Made by a program: the position numbers and the translations under genes
Assembly (NCBI GenBank): GCA_017540175.1
Contig: JAFYBN010000014.1
Coordinates: 39,010-103,009 of the forward strand
DNA: 64,000 bases
Origin: Clostridia bacterium
GTDB lineage: Bacteria; Bacillota; Clostridia; Oscillospirales; CAG-272
Reading direction: 5' to 3'
The notes under the pieces: generated by a model
What the model was told of the DNA's origin: nothing
Seen by the model: only the letters and a program-made list of their open reading frames with translations
Databases searched by the model: none
Part shown: one piece after another, positions 32,247 through 56,931 of the stretch
How positions within the stretch are numbered: the first letter of the stretch is position 1
Layout of the letters: the number at the start of each line of letters is the position of its first letter

Positions 32247-32627
32247 AAGTCACCGTACCGGGGTATGCGGAAATCACGCCGCGGGAAGACGGACGGAGCC
32301 CCGCGAGTCGTTTGGACGGCTGCGCGCGGACGCCATACCGGAGGACATCCGCAAAGGTCTGTTTGAATTTCCGTGCTGCCATCCGTAAACAGGAAACAAT
32401 ATTTCGTGCGGCAGGAATGCGGATAGAAAAGCAGGGGTACCGGCATAAAGAATCTGCCTCCGCAGACAGACCTGTTGTTCATCCGGCCGCTGAGTTCCAA
32501 GAAACCAACTTTAGGCTGACCGTCTTGGGAATCAGGCACAAATGAAAGCTTGAGAGCTTTGAAATACGATCCCGTCCCGCGCAGTCGGCGGAGGGAGAGA
32601 AAAAATCCAAATAAAGGAGTATGCCCC

Positions 32628-35240
32628 ATGGACGAAAGAGAGTTTACCTGCGGAGATTATAGGTATACGCTTGCCGACGACGGCGGGGCGGTGATTGAGA
32701 AATACAGAGGGGAGGAAGCCGGGGAGCTGGAAATCCCGGCGGAGTTGGACGGGCACCGGGTCACGGCGATCGGCAAAGATGCGTTCAGCTGCTGCAGCAG
32801 TCTGACCGACGTGACCATTCCCGACAGCGTGAAAAAGATCGGCGATATCGCCTTCGAATTCTGCGGCTGCCTGGCTTCCGTAACCATTCCCGACAGCGTC
32901 ACGGAAATCGGCGACGGTGCGTTTGGCGGATGCGATATGCTCTCAGAGTTCCACATCTCTCCGCGTCATCCCGTATTCAGCATTATGAACAACGCGCTTG
33001 TCCACAGGGCTGAAAAACGTCTGCTCTGCGTTCCCGGCGCATTCACCGGTCATTATGATATTCCCCGCGGCATTCATATCATTGGTAACTGCGCGGTCTT
33101 CGGATGTAAAAGTCTGACCGACGTGACCATTCCCGACACCGTCACGAAAATCGGCGAAAGCGCGTTCACTCTTTGCATAAACCTCGAATCCGTTATCATT
33201 CCCGACAGCGTCACGGAAATCGGCAGCGGCGCGTTTTATGAATGCCACAGCCTGACCGACGTGACCATTCCCGCCGGCGTTAAGGAAATCGGCTACTGTG
33301 TGTTCGGAGGCTGCAGCAGCCTGACCGACGTGACCATTCCCTCCGGTGTCACTAAAATCGACGACAGCGCATTCTGTCACTGCAGCAGTCTGACCCGCGT
33401 AACCATCCCTGACAGCGTCACGAAAATCTGTAGATCCGCGTTCGCTGATTGCAACAGTCTGACTCGTTTGACCATTCCCGACAGCATTGAGGAAATCGGC
33501 ATCTTTGCATTCCAGAACTGCACCAGACTGACCGACGTGACCATTCCCGACAGTGTCACGAAAATCGGCATCTACGCGTTCGAGAACTGCATCAGACTGA
33601 CCGCTGTGACCATTCCCTCCAGTGTCACAAAAATCAACAACCACGTATTCTGCGGCTGCAAAGGTCTGACCGCCGTGACCATTCCCTCGGGCGTCACGGA
33701 AATCGGCAATGACGCGTTTTCCGGATGCAGAAGCCTGACTGATGTGACCATTCCCTCCAGCGTTAAAGAGATCGGCAATGGCGCGTTTAAAAGCTGCAGA
33801 AGCCTGACTGACGTGACCATTCCCTCCAGCGTTAAAGAGATCGGCAATGGCGCGTTCAAAAGCTGCAGCAGCCTGACTGACGTGACCATTCCGGACAGCG
33901 TCACGGTGATCGGCGGCAGCGCGTTCGAACTCTGCTCAAGCCTGACCGCCGTGACCATTCCCTCGGGCGTCACGGTGATCGGCGAAGGCGTGTTCAAAAG
34001 CTGCAGCAGCCTGACCGACGTGACCATTCCCCCGGGTGTCACGGTGATCGGCGAAGGCAAGTTCAAAAGCTGCACAAGCCTGACCGACGTGACCATTCCC
34101 TCGGGCGTCACCAAGATCGGCAACTGCGCTTTTTCCGGATGCAGAAGCCTGACCGACGTTACCATTCCCTCGGGCGTTAAAGAGATCGGCAACGGCGCGT
34201 TCGAATCCTGCGGCAGCCTGGTCTCCGTAACCATTCCCTCGGGCGTCACGGAAATCGGTGACGGCGCTTTTTCCGGATGCGATATGCTGACCGAGTTCAA
34301 CGTCTCTCCGCGTCATCCCGTATTCAGCATTATGAACAGCGCGCTTGTCCACAGGGCTGAAAAACGTCTGCTCTGCGTTCCCGGCGCATTCACCGGTCAT
34401 TATGATATTCCCCGCGGCATTTATGTCATTGGTTACGGCGCGTTTTTTGGAAACAGCAGCCTGACAGGTGTGAACATTCCCGTCGGCGTTAAAGAGATTG
34501 GCGACTGTGCGTTCGAAGGCTGCACAAGCCTGACCGATGTGACCATTTCCTCGGGCGTTACGGTGATCGGCGACTGCGCGTTCAAAAGCTGCAGCAGCCT
34601 GACCGACGTGACCATTCCCTCGGGCGTTAAAGAGATCGGCAACGGCGCGTTCGAAGGCTGCACAAGCCTGACCGACGTGACCATTCCCTCGGGCGTTAAA
34701 GAGATCGGCAACGGCGCGTTCGAAGGCTGCACAAGCCTGACCGACGTGACCATTCCCTCGGGCGTTAAAGAGATCGGCAATGGCGCGTTTGAATACTGCG
34801 ACAGCCTGGTCTCCGCAACCATTCTCTCCGGCGTCACGGAAATCGGCGACTATGCGTTCGGAGGCTGCAGCAGCCTGGTCTCCGTAACCATTCCCTCCAG
34901 CGTTAAAGAGATCGGCAATGAGGCGTTCGAATTCTGCCGCAGCCTGACCGACGTAACCATTCCCTCCAGCGTCACGGTGATCGCTCGAAACGCGTTCAAA
35001 TTCTGCAGCAGCCTGACCGCCGTGACCATTCCCTCCGGTGTCACAAAAATTGACGACTACGCATTCTGGAACTGCAGCAGCCTGACCGACGTGACCATTC
35101 CCTCCAGCGTTTATGAGATCGGCGACCACGCGTTCTTGGAATGTCCCATCCGGACCGCCGTCGTCGACAGGGGCTCTTACGCGGAGAAGTACTGTACAGA
35201 AAACAACATCCCCTTCGTCTGCGCCGATGAAAAGGCATAA
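32628..35240 (+). CDS. BspA-like leucine-rich repeat protein (LRR_5 type), no signal peptide
   Basis: Start at MDEREFTCGDYRY (ATG 32628, RBS aaggag). 870 aa. Tens of about 23-aa units of the form SLT.VTIP.SV..IG..AF..C. Two-module architecture. Confidence 0.85.
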   Translation: MDEREFTCGDYRYTLADDGGAVIEKYRGEEAGELEIPAELDGHRVTAIGKDAFSCCSSLTDVTIPDSVKKIGDIAFEFCGCLASVTIPDSVTEIGDGAFGGCDMLSEFHISPRHPVFSIMNNALVHRAEKRLLCVPGAFTGHYDIPRGIHIIGNCAVFGCKSLTDVTIPDTVTKIGESAFTLCINLESVIIPDSVTEIGSGAFYECHSLTDVTIPAGVKEIGYCVFGGCSSLTDVTIPSGVTKIDDSAFCHCSSLTRVTIPDSVTKICRSAFADCNSLTRLTIPDSIEEIGIFAFQNCTRLTDVTIPDSVTKIGIYAFENCIRLTAVTIPSSVTKINNHVFCGCKGLTAVTIPSGVTEIGNDAFSGCRSLTDVTIPSSVKEIGNGAFKSCRSLTDVTIPSSVKEIGNGAFKSCSSLTDVTIPDSVTVIGGSAFELCSSLTAVTIPSGVTVIGEGVFKSCSSLTDVTIPPGVTVIGEGKFKSCTSLTDVTIPSGVTKIGNCAFSGCRSLTDVTIPSGVKEIGNGAFESCGSLVSVTIPSGVTEIGDGAFSGCDMLTEFNVSPRHPVFSIMNSALVHRAEKRLLCVPGAFTGHYDIPRGIYVIGYGAFFGNSSLTGVNIPVGVKEIGDCAFEGCTSLTDVTISSGVTVIGDCAFKSCSSLTDVTIPSGVKEIGNGAFEGCTSLTDVTIPSGVKEIGNGAFEGCTSLTDVTIPSGVKEIGNGAFEYCDSLVSATILSGVTEIGDYAFGGCSSLVSVTIPSSVKEIGNEAFEFCRSLTDVTIPSSVTVIARNAFKFCSSLTAVTIPSGVTKIDDYAFWNCSSLTDVTIPSSVYEIGDHAFLECPIRTAVVDRGSYAEKYCTENNIPFVCADEKA
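33727..33864 (+). repeat. Intragenic 2 x 69-bp near-identical tandem repeat (LRR units)
   Basis: Period 69 nt (33727 and 33796) with 2 mismatches seen by eye. Confidence 0.8.
34598..34804 (+). repeat. Intragenic 3 x 69-bp tandem repeat (first two units identical)
   Basis: The unit cctgaccgacgtgaccattccctcgggcgttaaagagatcggcaacggcgcgttcgaaggctgcacaag starts at 34598, 34667 and 34736. Confidence 0.85.
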
Positions 35241-35282: not shown

Positions 35283-35524
35283 ATGGACGAAAGAGAATTT
35301 ACCTGCGGAGATTATAGGTATACGCTTGCCGACGACGGCGGGGCTGTGATTGAGAAATACCTCGCAGAAGACAATAAGCTGAAAATCCCGGCGGAGCCGG
35401 ACGGGCACCGGCTCACGGCGATCGGCAAGTACGCGTTTTTCGACTGCAGCCTGACCGATGTGACCATCCCCTCCAGCGTTAACAAAATCGGCGAGAGTGC
35501 GTTCTCAAGCCGCGACAACCTGTT
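35283..35524 (+). pseudogene. Truncated BspA-like LRR paralog (5' fragment only)
   Basis: 35269..35360 duplicates 32614..32705 (RBS plus the first 26 codons, 2 mismatches). LRR similarity stops near 35520, where the tRNA-associated repeat array begins. The track ORF 35283..35975 simply reads through the array. Confidence 0.65.
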
Positions 35525-35972
35525 ACACGCGCCCGTTCGATTCCCCCTTATCCGGATCAAAAAAAGAACCTTACGGTTCTTCTTTATGACCCGAGGGGGA
35601 ATCCCTCTCGCCTGCGGGCTCGGTCATGGGCGCCTACACGCGCCCGTTCGATTCCCCCTTTTTCGGATCAAAAAAAGAACCTTGCGGTTCTTTTTTATGA
35701 CCCGAGGGGGAATCGAATTCTCGCCTGCGGGCTCGGTCAGGGTGCGGGAAAACATCCCGAGTTTGCCGCAGGCATACTCAGCCGGGAATGTTTTCTTACG
35801 CGCACCCGTTCGATTTCCCCTTTTCTCGGATCAAAAAAAGAACCTAGCGGTTCTTTTTTATGACCCGAGGGGGAATCGTTCTCGCCTGCGGGCTCGGTCA
35901 TGGGCGCCTACACGCGCCCGTTCGATTCCCCCTTTTCTCGGATCAAAAAAAGAACCTTCCGGTTCTTTTTTA
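35525..35972. repeat. Composite repeat array derived from the tRNA-Glu 3' end (units of 111, 162, 112 bp plus a partial unit)
   Basis: Units start at 35525, 35636, 35798 and 35910. Three extra copies of tgacccgagggggaatc (35587, 35698, 35861). Four copies of the hairpin aaaaaaagaacc-NNNN-ggttctttttt. The invariant 21-mer tctcgcctgcgggctcggtca occurs at 35606, 35719 and 35880. Confidence 0.9.
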
Positions 35973-36044
35973 TGACCCGAGGGGGAATCGAACCCCCGTT
36001 ACTGCCGTGAAAGGGCGGTGTCTTAGCCTCTTGACCATCGGGCC
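35973..36044 (-). tRNA. tRNA-Glu (anticodon UUC)
   Basis: Minus strand GGCCCGATGGTCAAGAGGCTAAGACACCGCCCTTTCACGGCAGTAACGGGGGTTCGATTCCCCCTCGGGTCA. Cloverleaf drawn by hand. 7-bp acceptor stem, loop CTTTCAC, no encoded CCA. C28-A42 mismatch. Confidence 0.9.
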
Positions 36045-36068
36045 ATTATAAATATTCACCCGGTTAGT

Positions 36069-36140
36069 TGACCCGAGGGGGAATCGAACCCCCGTTACTG
36101 CCGTGAAAGGGCGGTGTCTTAACCGCTTGACCATCGGGCC
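36069..36140 (-). tRNA. tRNA-Glu (anticodon UUC), second copy
   Basis: Same as the first copy except for the D-loop (AAGCGGTTAAG versus AAGAGGCTAAG). 24-nt spacer between the copies. Confidence 0.9.
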
Positions 36141-36155
36141 CCGGACCGGGTGAAT

Positions 36156-36232
36156 TGGTAGCGGAAGTTGGACTTGAACCCACGACCTACCGGGTATGAA
36201 CCGGTTGCTCTAGCCAGCTGAGCTATTCCGCC
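36156..36232 (-). tRNA. tRNA-Met (anticodon CAU; elongator type by eye, Ile2-lysidine not excluded)
   Basis: Minus strand GGCGGAATAGCTCAGCTGGCTAGAGCAACCGGTTCATACCCGGTAGGTCGTGGGTTCAAGTCCAACTTCCGCTACCA. CCA is encoded. G1-U72 pair and one G-A mismatch in the T stem. Confidence 0.8.
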
Positions 36233-52935: not shown

Positions 52936-53451
52936 ATGAAATTCCTTTGGAAGGATTACGACCCCGGAGCGGACGCGTTCTGCGAGGAATGGCTCGACGC
53001 GGAGGCAACCCGCCTGACGGGGCTGGACGACGGTTGGCGGGCGTTTCACGCATACTGGACGACGGACGGCGGTCTTGCCGAAGGAAGGGATTTCTTCGAC
53101 AAGGTTATTTGCACACCGCCCTCCTCCCCTCTTTCCCCCTCCTCTTCCCTGCCCGCCCGGGGCGGTGAACCTGTCGCGGCGATCGCGTTCGGGCTGCACG
53201 GGCGTGTTCTGCACGTGATGGAACTGCTCGTCAGGCCGGATCTGCGCGGGCGCGGGATCGGGACGGCGGTGCTGCGTGAGCTGCTCGCGAACGGGAACCT
53301 TCTTAACGGCGGGAGCGCGGTCCGCGCGGAAGCGGTGATATTCCCGGACAACGCCGCGTCGATCCGGGCGTTCGAGAAAGCGGGATTCCGCTTCGATCAC
53401 GCGCACCCGGACGGGGACGCGCTGTATTACACGTATGAGGCGGAACGTTAA
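52936..53451 (+). CDS. GNAT family N-acetyltransferase
   Basis: 171 aa. V.P..RGRGIGTAVLREL acetyl-CoA binding motif. Confidence 0.75.
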   Translation: MKFLWKDYDPGADAFCEEWLDAEATRLTGLDDGWRAFHAYWTTDGGLAEGRDFFDKVICTPPSSPLSPSSSLPARGGEPVAAIAFGLHGRVLHVMELLVRPDLRGRGIGTAVLRELLANGNLLNGGSAVRAEAVIFPDNAASIRAFEKAGFRFDHAHPDGDALYYTYEAER

Positions 53452-53466
53452 AAGGACCTCTCCGTC

Positions 53467-53856
53467 ACGCGCGCCCGTTCAAGTCCCACAAACTGCAGCG
53501 AAAAAAATAAAGACAGCTTCCCGACAAAAGGATGCTGTCTTTATGGTGCGGAAGACGGGACCCCCAATTCTCGCCTGCGGGCTCGGTCATGGGGAAAACA
53601 GCCCGGTGGGCTGTTTTCTTACGCGCCCGTTCAAGTCCCACAAACTGCAGCTGAAAATAAAATACAGCCTCCCGACGATGGAAAAGCTGTACTTTATTCT
53701 TCGGAAGACGGGACCCCCAATTCTCGCCTGCGGGCTCGGTCAGGGTGCGGGAAAACATCCCACCGGGATGTTTTCTTACACGCACCCGTTCAAGTCCCAC
53801 AAACTGCAGCAAAAAATGAAAACAGCCTCCCGACGATCGAAAAGCTGTTTATCAAG
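53467..53856. repeat. Composite repeat array derived from the tRNA-Leu(GAG) 3' end (units of 154 and 157 bp plus a partial unit)
   Basis: Units start at 53467, 53621 and 53778. Extra copies of the tRNA 3' end (t[gt]cggaagacggga at 53547 and 53700). Three inverted degenerate copies (gttcaagtccc-acaaactgcagc). Three hairpins with compensating stems. The same 21-mer as in the Glu array occurs at 53569 and 53722. Confidence 0.9.
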
Positions 53857-53938
53857 TGCGGAAGACGGGACTTGAACCCGTATGGGATGCCCCACACGCC
53901 CCTCAAACGTGCGCGTCTGCCAGTTCCGCCACTTCCGC
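53857..53938 (-). tRNA. tRNA-Leu (anticodon GAG)
   Basis: Minus strand GCGGAAGTGGCGGAACTGGCAGACGCGCACGTTTGAGGGGCGTGTGGGGCATCCCATACGGGTTCAAGTCCCGTCTTCCGCA. Class II long variable arm. Loop TTGAGGG by hand folding. No encoded CCA. Confidence 0.85.
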
Positions 53939-56811: not shown

Positions 56812-56831
56812 TCCCTTGTTCAACTGAATAT

Positions 56832-56906
<75 letters not shown>

Positions 56907-56931
56907 GAGCAGTTGGTAAAATCCAACAAAA

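Follow-up and report, generated by a model that had tools for sequence, protein, structure and literature searches.

How does the same stretch of 43 nt come to lie, letter for letter, behind two different tRNA genes, with flanks that in each case belong to the local tRNA? The question is raised by 64,000 nt of the genome of a Clostridia bacterium (Oscillospirales; CAG-272; contig JAFYBN010000014.1, positions 39,010-103,009, forward strand), hereafter the window, in which AATTCTCGCCTGCGGGCTCGGTCAGGGTGCGGGAAAACATCCC has two exact copies on the (+) strand, at 35716-35758 and 53719-53761; shuffled sequences lead one to expect none. An earlier note had pointed out this identity between a tRNA-Glu and a tRNA-Leu array and had attributed the shared cargo to a T-loop-targeting mobile or recombining module. 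The match is exact at both places, and the attribution has gained support, although movement itself was not observed and no enzyme was identified. The reading favoured here, to which a probability of about one half is given, is that the module represents an undescribed family of non-autonomous, structure-dependent insertion elements, which target tRNA and tmRNA genes but duplicate the end of the gene and so leave it whole. As to mechanism, the anatomy of the insertions is the sole basis of inference.

Because tRNA-Met, tRNA-Glu and tRNA-Glu (36232-35972) as well as tRNA-Leu(GAG) (53938-53856) are encoded on the (-) strand, the arrays lie downstream of the genes and the (+) strand is antisense. 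Read on the (-) strand, the tRNA is followed by a terminator and by repeated units, each closed by a further terminator. A unit runs from a short spacer through an inverted copy of the T-loop and the 3' strand of the T-stem (GGGGGAATCGAAC in the Glu units, GGGACTTGAAC in the Leu units), the module and a 1-nt linker into a direct copy of the tRNA that starts in the T-loop and reaches the 3' end. On the tRNA-sense strand, the module divides into hairpin 1 followed by domain 2. Three full units follow tRNA-Glu and two follow tRNA-Leu, and each array finishes with a partial unit.

The Glu array is headed by an intact tRNA-Glu(UUC) (35972-36045), upstream of which lie a second tRNA-Glu (36069-36140) and a tRNA-Met (36156-36232; all on the (-) strand, ARAGORN and Rfam). 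The members of the tandem tRNA-Glu(UUC) pair (35972-36140) differ in the D-loop and in the downstream sequence, and only the second gene, which is followed by a terminator, heads an array. This bidirectional terminator hairpin (35946-35971) recurs in near-identical copies, which differ mainly in the loop, behind the units (35834-35859, 35671-35696 and 35560-35585; repeat search and sequence). Unit 1, proximal and short (35861-35932, (-) strand like all units and their parts; covariance model, 37.3 bits, E=6.6e-07), consists of the inverted T copy (35920-35932; repeat search), a module in which hairpin 1 is shrunk to GGGCGC-GTGTAG-GCGCCC ahead of domain 2 (35880-35919), the linker A (35879) and the direct copy of the tRNA-Glu 3' end (35861-35878). 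Unit 2 is long and holds the reported 43-mer (35698-35820; sequence and covariance model): its inverted T copy (35808-35820) is followed by a module with a hairpin 1 of variant B and an extra loop insert of 25 nt (35719-35807), the linker A (35718) and a direct copy of the tRNA 3' end from T54 onwards (35698-35717). The insert (35759-35783; GGCTGAGTATGCCTGCGGCAAACTC on the (-) strand) contains a TGCCTGCGGCA mini-hairpin, which is of the type found in the hairpins of a comb-like repeat elsewhere (L115, see below) and similar to the apex of domain 2. Unit 3, distal and again short (35587-35658; repeat search and covariance model), comprises the inverted T copy (35646-35658), the module (35606-35645) and the direct copy of the tRNA 3' end (35587-35604). 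The terminal partial unit (35524-35547; sequence and repeat search) retains the inverted T copy (35535-35547) and only the first 11 nt of hairpin 1 (35524-35534), and abuts a truncated BspA-type LRR ORF on the (+) strand. Since this ORF runs into the array, the array has its distal end at the point where a gene is truncated. The fragment (35283-35540, (+) strand), in which the LRR_5 match is limited to residues 44-83, comes directly after the gene of a complete LRR_5 protein of 896 aa (32550-35240).

The Leu array starts from an intact tRNA-Leu(GAG) (53856-53938, (-) strand; ARAGORN and Rfam). Its proximal unit is long and carries the second copy of the 43-mer (53699-53798; covariance model, 58.3 bits, E=9.4e-12), with an inverted T copy (53788-53798), a module that combines a complete hairpin 1 of variant B with domain 2 (53722-53787) and a degenerate direct copy of the tRNA-Leu 3' end (53702-53714). 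In the distal unit (53547-53639; 37.0 bits), the inverted T copy (53629-53639) precedes a module that has lost the 3' strand of the outer stem (53569-53628), and a direct copy of the tRNA-Leu 3' end follows (53547-53561). The partial unit (53465-53487; sequence and repeat search), made up of an inverted T copy (53477-53487) and ~12 nt of hairpin 1, stops ~14 nt from the stop codon of a GNAT gene (52936-53451, (+) strand). Elsewhere in the window, the flank of an unoccupied tRNA-Met (56831-56907) has a terminator only and no inverted T copy.

These arrays bear out the earlier description of the shared segment. The right-hand continuation is visibly near-identical in both, and the Glu copy does have an extra loop insert, 25 nt in place of 4 nt. 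The flanks are tRNA-specific as had been claimed: on the (+) strand, the left one is antisense to the 3' end of the local tRNA, and the right one is the inverted copy of T-loop and T-stem 3' strand (GTTCGATTCCCCC or GTTCAAGTCCC). Five copies of a core had been put forward for alignment, and five were found, all with the flanks described. The 22-nt core, TTCTCGCCTGCGGGCTCGGTCA, occurs with at most one mismatch at 35605, 35718, 35879, 53568 and 53721, each time on the (-), i.e., the tRNA-sense strand; an exhaustive covariance-model scan of the window returned the same five copies and no other below E=0.07.

Beyond the window, a scan of the 20-mer CTCGCCTGCGGGCTCGGTCA against one genome per prokaryotic species gave at least 117 loci (cited by L numbers where they need to be told apart), and a covariance model recognized 124 copies in 100 loci among the matches listed, 13 of them without an exact 20-mer. 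Hairpin 1 is free in sequence and conserved in structure, may be short or long, and covaries strongly. Its typical form has an outer stem, an internal loop with TAGTGAAT on the 5' side and AGAG on the 3' side, and an inner hairpin. The copies of the window have either a minimal hairpin or a second type (GTGTAAGAAAAC...GTTTTCCC, variant B), which is also present in L023, L042, L059 and L102; other short forms occur in L022, L036, L049 and L075. Domain 2, TGACCGAGCCCGCAGGCGAG(A), is a short GC hairpin within CGAG...CGAG(A) and is near-invariant. Among 54 distinct copies, 94.9% of the cells are paired; sliding the partners lowers this to 25-43%. Both sides have changed in 12 pairs, across 151 cells. 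Positions in the internal loop of hairpin 1 also covary in a regular, non-Watson-Crick manner (G goes with G, T with C and A with A), which a K-turn would fit only in part and not in all features. The diverged copies, i.e., the 13 without the 20-mer and the module in L036, retain CGAG...CGAGA around a stem with compensatory changes, in which GCC/GGC has given way to GTT/AGC, CGGC/GCCG, CGCG/CGCG or GGC/GCC. The conserved frame together with the compensatory changes indicates that domain 2 is a real hairpin closed by tandem G.A pairs. This tandem G.A motif can form on the tRNA-sense strand only, and 60 of 71 copies fold better on that strand. The element as a whole spans ~70-110 nt and contains no gene; the complete unit spans ~110-160 nt.

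Near-invariance of domain 2 and structure-preserving change in hairpin 1 are also expected under selection for a functional RNA, which counts against the insertion-element reading. According to this alternative, which is considered unlikely, the unit would be a structured non-coding RNA folded as a three-way junction in which P1 (the helix of the flanks), hairpin 1 and domain 2 meet, and its 3' tail would have the sequence of the tRNA 3' end. Possible roles are a mimic of the tRNA end, a protein-binding RNA or a hammerhead-like self-cleaving RNA whose tandem units give rise to unit-length or circular RNAs, self-cleavage being an inference. The strong covariation, including the non-Watson-Crick pairs, the invariant tandem G.A domain and the better fold of the sense strand all speak for such an RNA, as do the fold of the window's Glu units into a three-way junction, the presence of the orphan motif Gut-1 beside several units, and an order of helices and joining strands like that of a type III hammerhead (..AAC / (C)UGACCGA / GAGA as against GUC / CUGAUGA / GAAA). 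However, there is no room for a promoter, since each unit begins a few nt past a strong terminator and finishes in another; some copies are antisense to a tRNA promoter, and inside tRNA copies both orientations are found. A role as a co-transcribed RNA is unlikely for these reasons, i.e., insulation by bidirectional terminators, lack of promoter space and the antisense orientation of 5'-side insertions. Moreover, P1 is missing in copies away from tRNA genes, a tRNA-like acceptor pairing seen in the window's Glu units is not conserved outside them, no Rfam family including the hammerheads matches at E<=10, and copies that are numerous, nested and decaying appear selfish. A type III hammerhead with the core UGACCGA / GAGA / AAC was rejected on the same threshold, since the 121-nt canonical unit has no model match at E<=10.

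Most copies lie just 3' of an intact tRNA or tmRNA gene, and at least 10 tRNA species are involved: the module follows tRNA-Ser (several isoacceptors), Leu, Arg, Gln, Glu, Ala, Pro, Cys and Met as well as tmRNA. The distance from the gene end to the downstream module is ~100-115 nt, and the orientation is always that of the gene. SmpB is a recurrent neighbour of the loci; it is the usual neighbour of tmRNA. A single subfamily, with a hairpin 1 of the GGGTCGG type, adjoins at least 10 different tRNA species and tmRNA, with flanks matched to the local gene each time. Flanks are tRNA- or tmRNA-derived in 64 of 222 segments, compared with 2 of 222 control segments. Among the evaluable genes in the collected loci, inverted T copy and module occur together at 36 tRNA/tmRNA genes and are both absent at 24; the sole nearby inverted T copy that seemed to lack a module proved to carry a diverged one.

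The rules of the junctions were derived from 40 units beside identified genes. The inverted copy comprises 11-14 nt from G53 and abuts hairpin 1, whereas the direct copy, on the other side, begins, behind a linker of A, AA or AG, at position 54-56 of the T-loop and in most units reaches the gene end or goes beyond it: identity stops within 0-4 nt of the end in ~15 cases, extends 7-81 nt into the terminator in ~12 and falls short in ~10. Where the gene encodes no CCA, the direct copy has none either, which implies that DNA or a precursor was copied and not the mature tRNA. Since the last ~22 nt of the gene exist in two copies, the gene itself is left undamaged. In every configuration, the GAGA (3') end of the module abuts the displaced ~22-nt copy of the gene end, and the hairpin-1 side faces the intact gene. 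With the inverted copy ahead of the module, as in the commonest form, the flanks can pair as helix P1 and the unit becomes a three-way junction. Internal units of L033 retain just 8-10 nt, as needed for this flanking helix. Arrays mix different hairpin-1 variants, and in six of eight the gene-proximal unit is the best preserved, the distal ones being mutated, deleted or truncated. Virtual excision followed by ARAGORN merely rejoined the upstream tRNA to its duplicated end, and the version with a relaxed threshold lacked a fair control.

Such an arrangement brings to mind integration at tRNA and tmRNA 3' ends, which are classical integrase targets. The units could be miniature integrative elements, or relics of larger ones, that supply a replacement tRNA 3' end, often with its own terminator, and depend on a tyrosine integrase acting in trans; a folded single-stranded att site, as in CTX-phi or integron attC, would be possible, and arrays would result from successive integrations. 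This scenario seems improbable on balance. It is backed by the location of the units, the direct repeat from the T-loop to the gene 3' end with its sharp end in ~15 cases, the different terminators on the two sides in L016, L065, L106 and L109, and the position of the youngest unit next to the gene. Paired with each other in single-stranded DNA, the inverted and direct T copies would also reproduce the duplex of the target, and the module has GNA triloops as well as tandem G.A pairs, both of which are stable motifs typical of single-stranded DNA. Nevertheless, none of the loci among the matches listed contains an integrase, the phage and plasmid collections provide no match and viral contigs a single one (in 2.9 million, at a prophage edge), and a fixed attP cannot account for one subfamily at more than 10 different tRNAs. 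Duplications of tRNA-Leu 1-22 at the 5' end and insertions within tRNA copies are unlike 3'-end integration, and the module would split the core site. The units do not qualify as conventional tyrosine-integrase tRNA elements either, given that the direct repeat of the 3' part is present but, in the 8-kb loci among the matches listed, no integrase gene lies within or beside them.

Other modules have simply inserted into a copy of a tRNA, in sense or antisense, with the T-loop as one of several sites. In L023, a pair of tRNA-Pro-like copies that lie ahead of the intact gene each hold a sense module in the T-loop (...AAAGG-T|AGCGAAGC-module-AA|TCAAGT-CCTGT...). Four loci (L010, L026, L066 and L049) share, in tRNA sense, the order promoter, tRNA-Leu 1-22, antisense module, spacer and intact tRNA-Leu, and in all four the 5' duplication ends exactly at the mature +1. 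In L049, the intact tRNA-Leu has a module on each side, and a dispersed, 5'-truncated tRNA-Leu copy (35-87 plus its terminator) bears an antisense module in the T-loop. A tRNA-Cys variant is found in L009 and L117, and a D-loop case in L113. The interrupted tRNA copies are decayed fragments; the adjacent tRNA is always intact. For these reasons, namely the intact neighbouring tRNA and the antisense orientation of some insertions, a tRNA intron, whether group I or protein-spliced, can be dismissed. The T-loop, proposed as the target in the earlier note, is the main site; other sites are used as well.

The same insertions keep alive a further, quite doubtful possibility: the element could be the bacterial equivalent of retro- or ribozyme-type elements linked to tRNAs, in which case a small hammerhead-like RNA (or a cDNA or ssDNA) joined to the terminal ~22 nt of a tRNA or tmRNA would be copied back beside the gene. 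An RNA-templated, SINE- or retrozyme-like mechanism remains in play because the duplication boundaries coincide with mature tRNA ends and because of the dispersed 5'-truncated copy, whose own terminator is relevant here. If true, this would amount to a SINE- or retrozyme-like system in Clostridia with tRNA ends as the landing pad.

A class of copies unrelated to tRNA has, as a rule, the left junction ...GGT|AGCGAAGC, a GC-GNA-GC mini-hairpin, lacks the P1 helix and sits within other small hairpin repeats. In this class (L008, L030, L053, L063, L085, L096, L101, L105 and others), the module is found inside another recurrent repeat, ..AAGGCTTCCCCTTGAGGG-[GCGAAGC adaptor+module]-AAGCTGTC-hairpin-GACTGATGAGGTGG..., which has a hammerhead-like CUGAUGAG box, no GAAA and no match to an Rfam hammerhead. 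Conversely, further small hairpins are nested in loops of the module. One of them, a second small element GGGGTTCCCCGAAGCGAGC...GCTTTGGGGG, occupies the hairpin-1 loop of some modules (L077 3464-3576, L048 673-783, L091 3752-3866, L045 7100-7205 and L043 3965-4068) and also occurs in the comb of L037. This comb is a palindrome of ~200 nt, seen ~20-60 nt past the unit terminator in L115, L037, L065, L106 and L109, and is composed of three to four copies of an 8-mer (GTGAAGTT, GTGATAT or GTGAAAT, depending on the locus) with small GC hairpins between them, followed by the reverse-complement 8-mers in a like arrangement. Rfam places Gut-1 at L106 1203-1281, L037 3758-3830, L109 14-86 and L024 4657-4727. 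As this orphan motif makes up the first half of the comb, there seems to be a larger repeat downstream of tRNAs, of which Gut-1 is one half. Gut-1 (RF01706) has been described as "human gut only" (PMC2864571). Taken as a whole, the nesting suggests a set of small elements that insert into one another's loops.

The at least 117 loci are nearly all from metagenome-assembled genomes (MAGs) of uncultured Clostridia, with at least 110 from gut or rumen Clostridia. Among the matches listed, the hosts belong to Oscillospiraceae, Christensenellales, Ruminococcus, Acutalibacteraceae and others, and come from ruminant, horse, chicken and human gut; several copies per genome are typical, with up to seven loci in one, and many loci are at contig ends. 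About four matches of the 20-mer outside Clostridia lack any module context and are due to chance in high-GC DNA (one each in L007, L035, L047 and L074, which are Actinomycetota, Gemmatimonadales, Micromonosporaceae and Saccharibacillus contigs). Polymorphism for presence or absence was not seen in ten assemblies that encode the flanking GNAT protein, all of which are of the same strain and have identical arrays. Three metagenome contigs of this strain (L122, L123 and L124) stop 38-153 nt past the GNAT gene, inside the Leu array. The elements break short-read assemblies and account for assembly breaks downstream of tRNAs in gut MAGs.

A match to a known RNA family or a restriction to two loci would have refuted the initial proposal, and neither was encountered. 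A very unlikely purely local origin, by tandem duplication of tRNA 3' flanks and gene conversion between the two arrays without dedicated mobility, could produce sharp boundaries at the module edges if conversion were limited by homology and could expand arrays by unequal crossing-over between repeated terminators and tRNA fragments, but is contradicted as a full explanation by the presence of the module in more than 100 species-level genomes, at many tRNAs, tmRNA and non-tRNA sites, by the different hairpin-1 variants within arrays and by the strict linkage of the inverted T copy to the module. The earlier view that local duplication is hard to invoke therefore holds for the whole, while the 43-nt identity alone could be gene conversion: it may represent one variant at two loci, by either installation or homology-limited conversion.

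The favoured reading takes the module for a non-autonomous insertion element. One subfamily at many genes, the mixed arrays and the preservation of the proximal unit mark the module as a discrete unit that was installed many times, and the collected sites show installation at or beside loops of tRNA-derived DNA, above all the T-loop. Installation may proceed via a single-stranded DNA or an RNA/cDNA intermediate; the covarying hairpins, the GNA triloops and the tandem G.A pairs point to a single-stranded active form, although this is inferred and the choice between DNA and RNA/cDNA is undecided. Trans-acting enzymes of the host or of an element would carry out the reaction, and as no enzyme is linked in cis, any machinery has to act in trans. 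Arrays might grow by repeated installation at the gene-proximal end together with unequal recombination, and in the window the arrays of tRNA-Glu and tRNA-Leu would have come to share one variant, through installation at each or conversion between them. Three points weigh against this reading: presence/absence polymorphism was not seen, no enzyme is linked in the loci among the matches listed, and we know of no transposition mechanism that leaves the target inverted at one flank and in direct orientation at the opposite flank.

A known family, vector or enzyme was not found. Rfam 15 returned only tRNAs for the window at the gathering threshold, permissive scans of both arrays and of canonical units gave nothing but noise for the module, and across the window, 41 loci and a canonical unit only tRNA, tmRNA and the neighbouring Gut-1 were matched. 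The single match among 2.9 million viral contigs is located at a prophage edge beside two host units. In this IMG/VR contig (L128 11500-12234), a tRNA/tmRNA-like 3' fragment at the end precedes two host-type units; the likely explanation is a prophage boundary with some host DNA attached, not a module carried by the phage. Blastn searches of phage and plasmid collections were negative, and the literature search yielded no paper with the 17-20-mers or with such tRNA-downstream elements. The ORFs of the 117 loci (among the matches listed; 8-kb loci) include no linked transposase, integrase, recombinase or reverse transcriptase, and only SmpB and an ABC ATPase recur in their clustering. ORFs between pairs of modules are housekeeping genes without a recombinase according to Pfam, and a RAYT/TnpA Y1 HUH transposase is not encoded in the 8-kb loci around the copies. 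The module does show one defining trait of REP/REPIN-RAYT or IS200/IS605 PATE sequences, imperfect palindromes with compensatory evolution, in multiple extragenic copies. A classical MITE was excluded, as the inverted flanks covary with the local tRNA and are not element-specific, the duplication is variable and at least 20 nt long, and no parent IS is in the loci. Integron attC/CALIN sites were excluded too: the junctions GAAC ... (A)TTCGAA are those of the tRNA T-loop, and there are neither GTTRRRY boxes nor cassettes. IS91 (with its GAAC target), the IS200/IS605 guide model, P-nucleotides with hairpin opening and snap-back cDNA each provide a partial fit, and none covers all features.

tRNA and tmRNA genes are the main landing sites of mobile DNA in bacteria, and their known occupants are, to our knowledge, large elements that carry their own integrase. 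Here, a gene-less element of ~70-110 nt occupies these sites in more than 100 species, and it has been invisible to Rfam and annotation because its hosts are uncultured. Its target-derived inverted flanks are unexplained by any standard transposition scheme. The mechanism could reveal a new structure- or RNA-guided targeting of DNA to the T-loop and could also account for the region of the orphan motif Gut-1; the conserved 20-mer is a ready lineage marker.

Among known systems, islands, prophages and satellites with tyrosine integrases resemble the units in their position at the tRNA/tmRNA 3' end, in the doubling of the 3' part of the gene from the T-loop to the end and in tandem accretion with the newest element beside the gene. 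The units differ in that they are only ~110-160 nt long, have no integrase and no cargo genes, and show an inverted T-loop/T-stem copy across a structured module, mirror-image duplications of the 5' end and insertions in tRNA copies. Type III hammerheads and the tandem units of retrozymes share the three-way junction, the helix order, tandem G.A pairs on the stem-II equivalent, a strand like the UGA turn and the formation of arrays. However, the unit departs from their core by an additional C, by GAGA in place of GAAA and by AAC in place of GUC, does not match the covariance model at E<=10, contains terminators and, in the non-tRNA class, lacks helix III. Integron attC and CTX-phi attP are comparable in that structure is conserved over sequence, a terminal hairpin is variable, a stem imitates the target and arrays form beside a fixed site; the module lacks R''/R' GTTRRRY boxes and gene cassettes, has neither an integron integrase nor a dif context, and its domain 2 is highly conserved in sequence. 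Gut-1 (RF01706), likewise an orphan and rich in hairpins, shares the uncultured gut Clostridia and the tRNA-downstream regions and often comes directly after a unit, but it differs in sequence and in structure, being built as a comb of 8-mers and mini-hairpins, and the module has no RF01706 match. REP/REPINs, PATEs derived from IS200/IS605 and MITE-like repeats are, like the module, small, multi-copy, extragenic, hairpin-forming and non-autonomous, with compensatory stems and mutual nesting, and are presumably mobilised in trans as single strands. In contrast to these, the terminal inverted repeats of the module are copied from the local target and are not element-specific, tRNA and tmRNA genes are strongly preferred, the gene end is duplicated over ~22 nt or more, and no RAYT, TnpA or parent IS lies nearby. 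Unmatched in Rfam, in the searched literature and in phage or plasmid collections, the module looks like a new kind of small tRNA-targeting insertion element.
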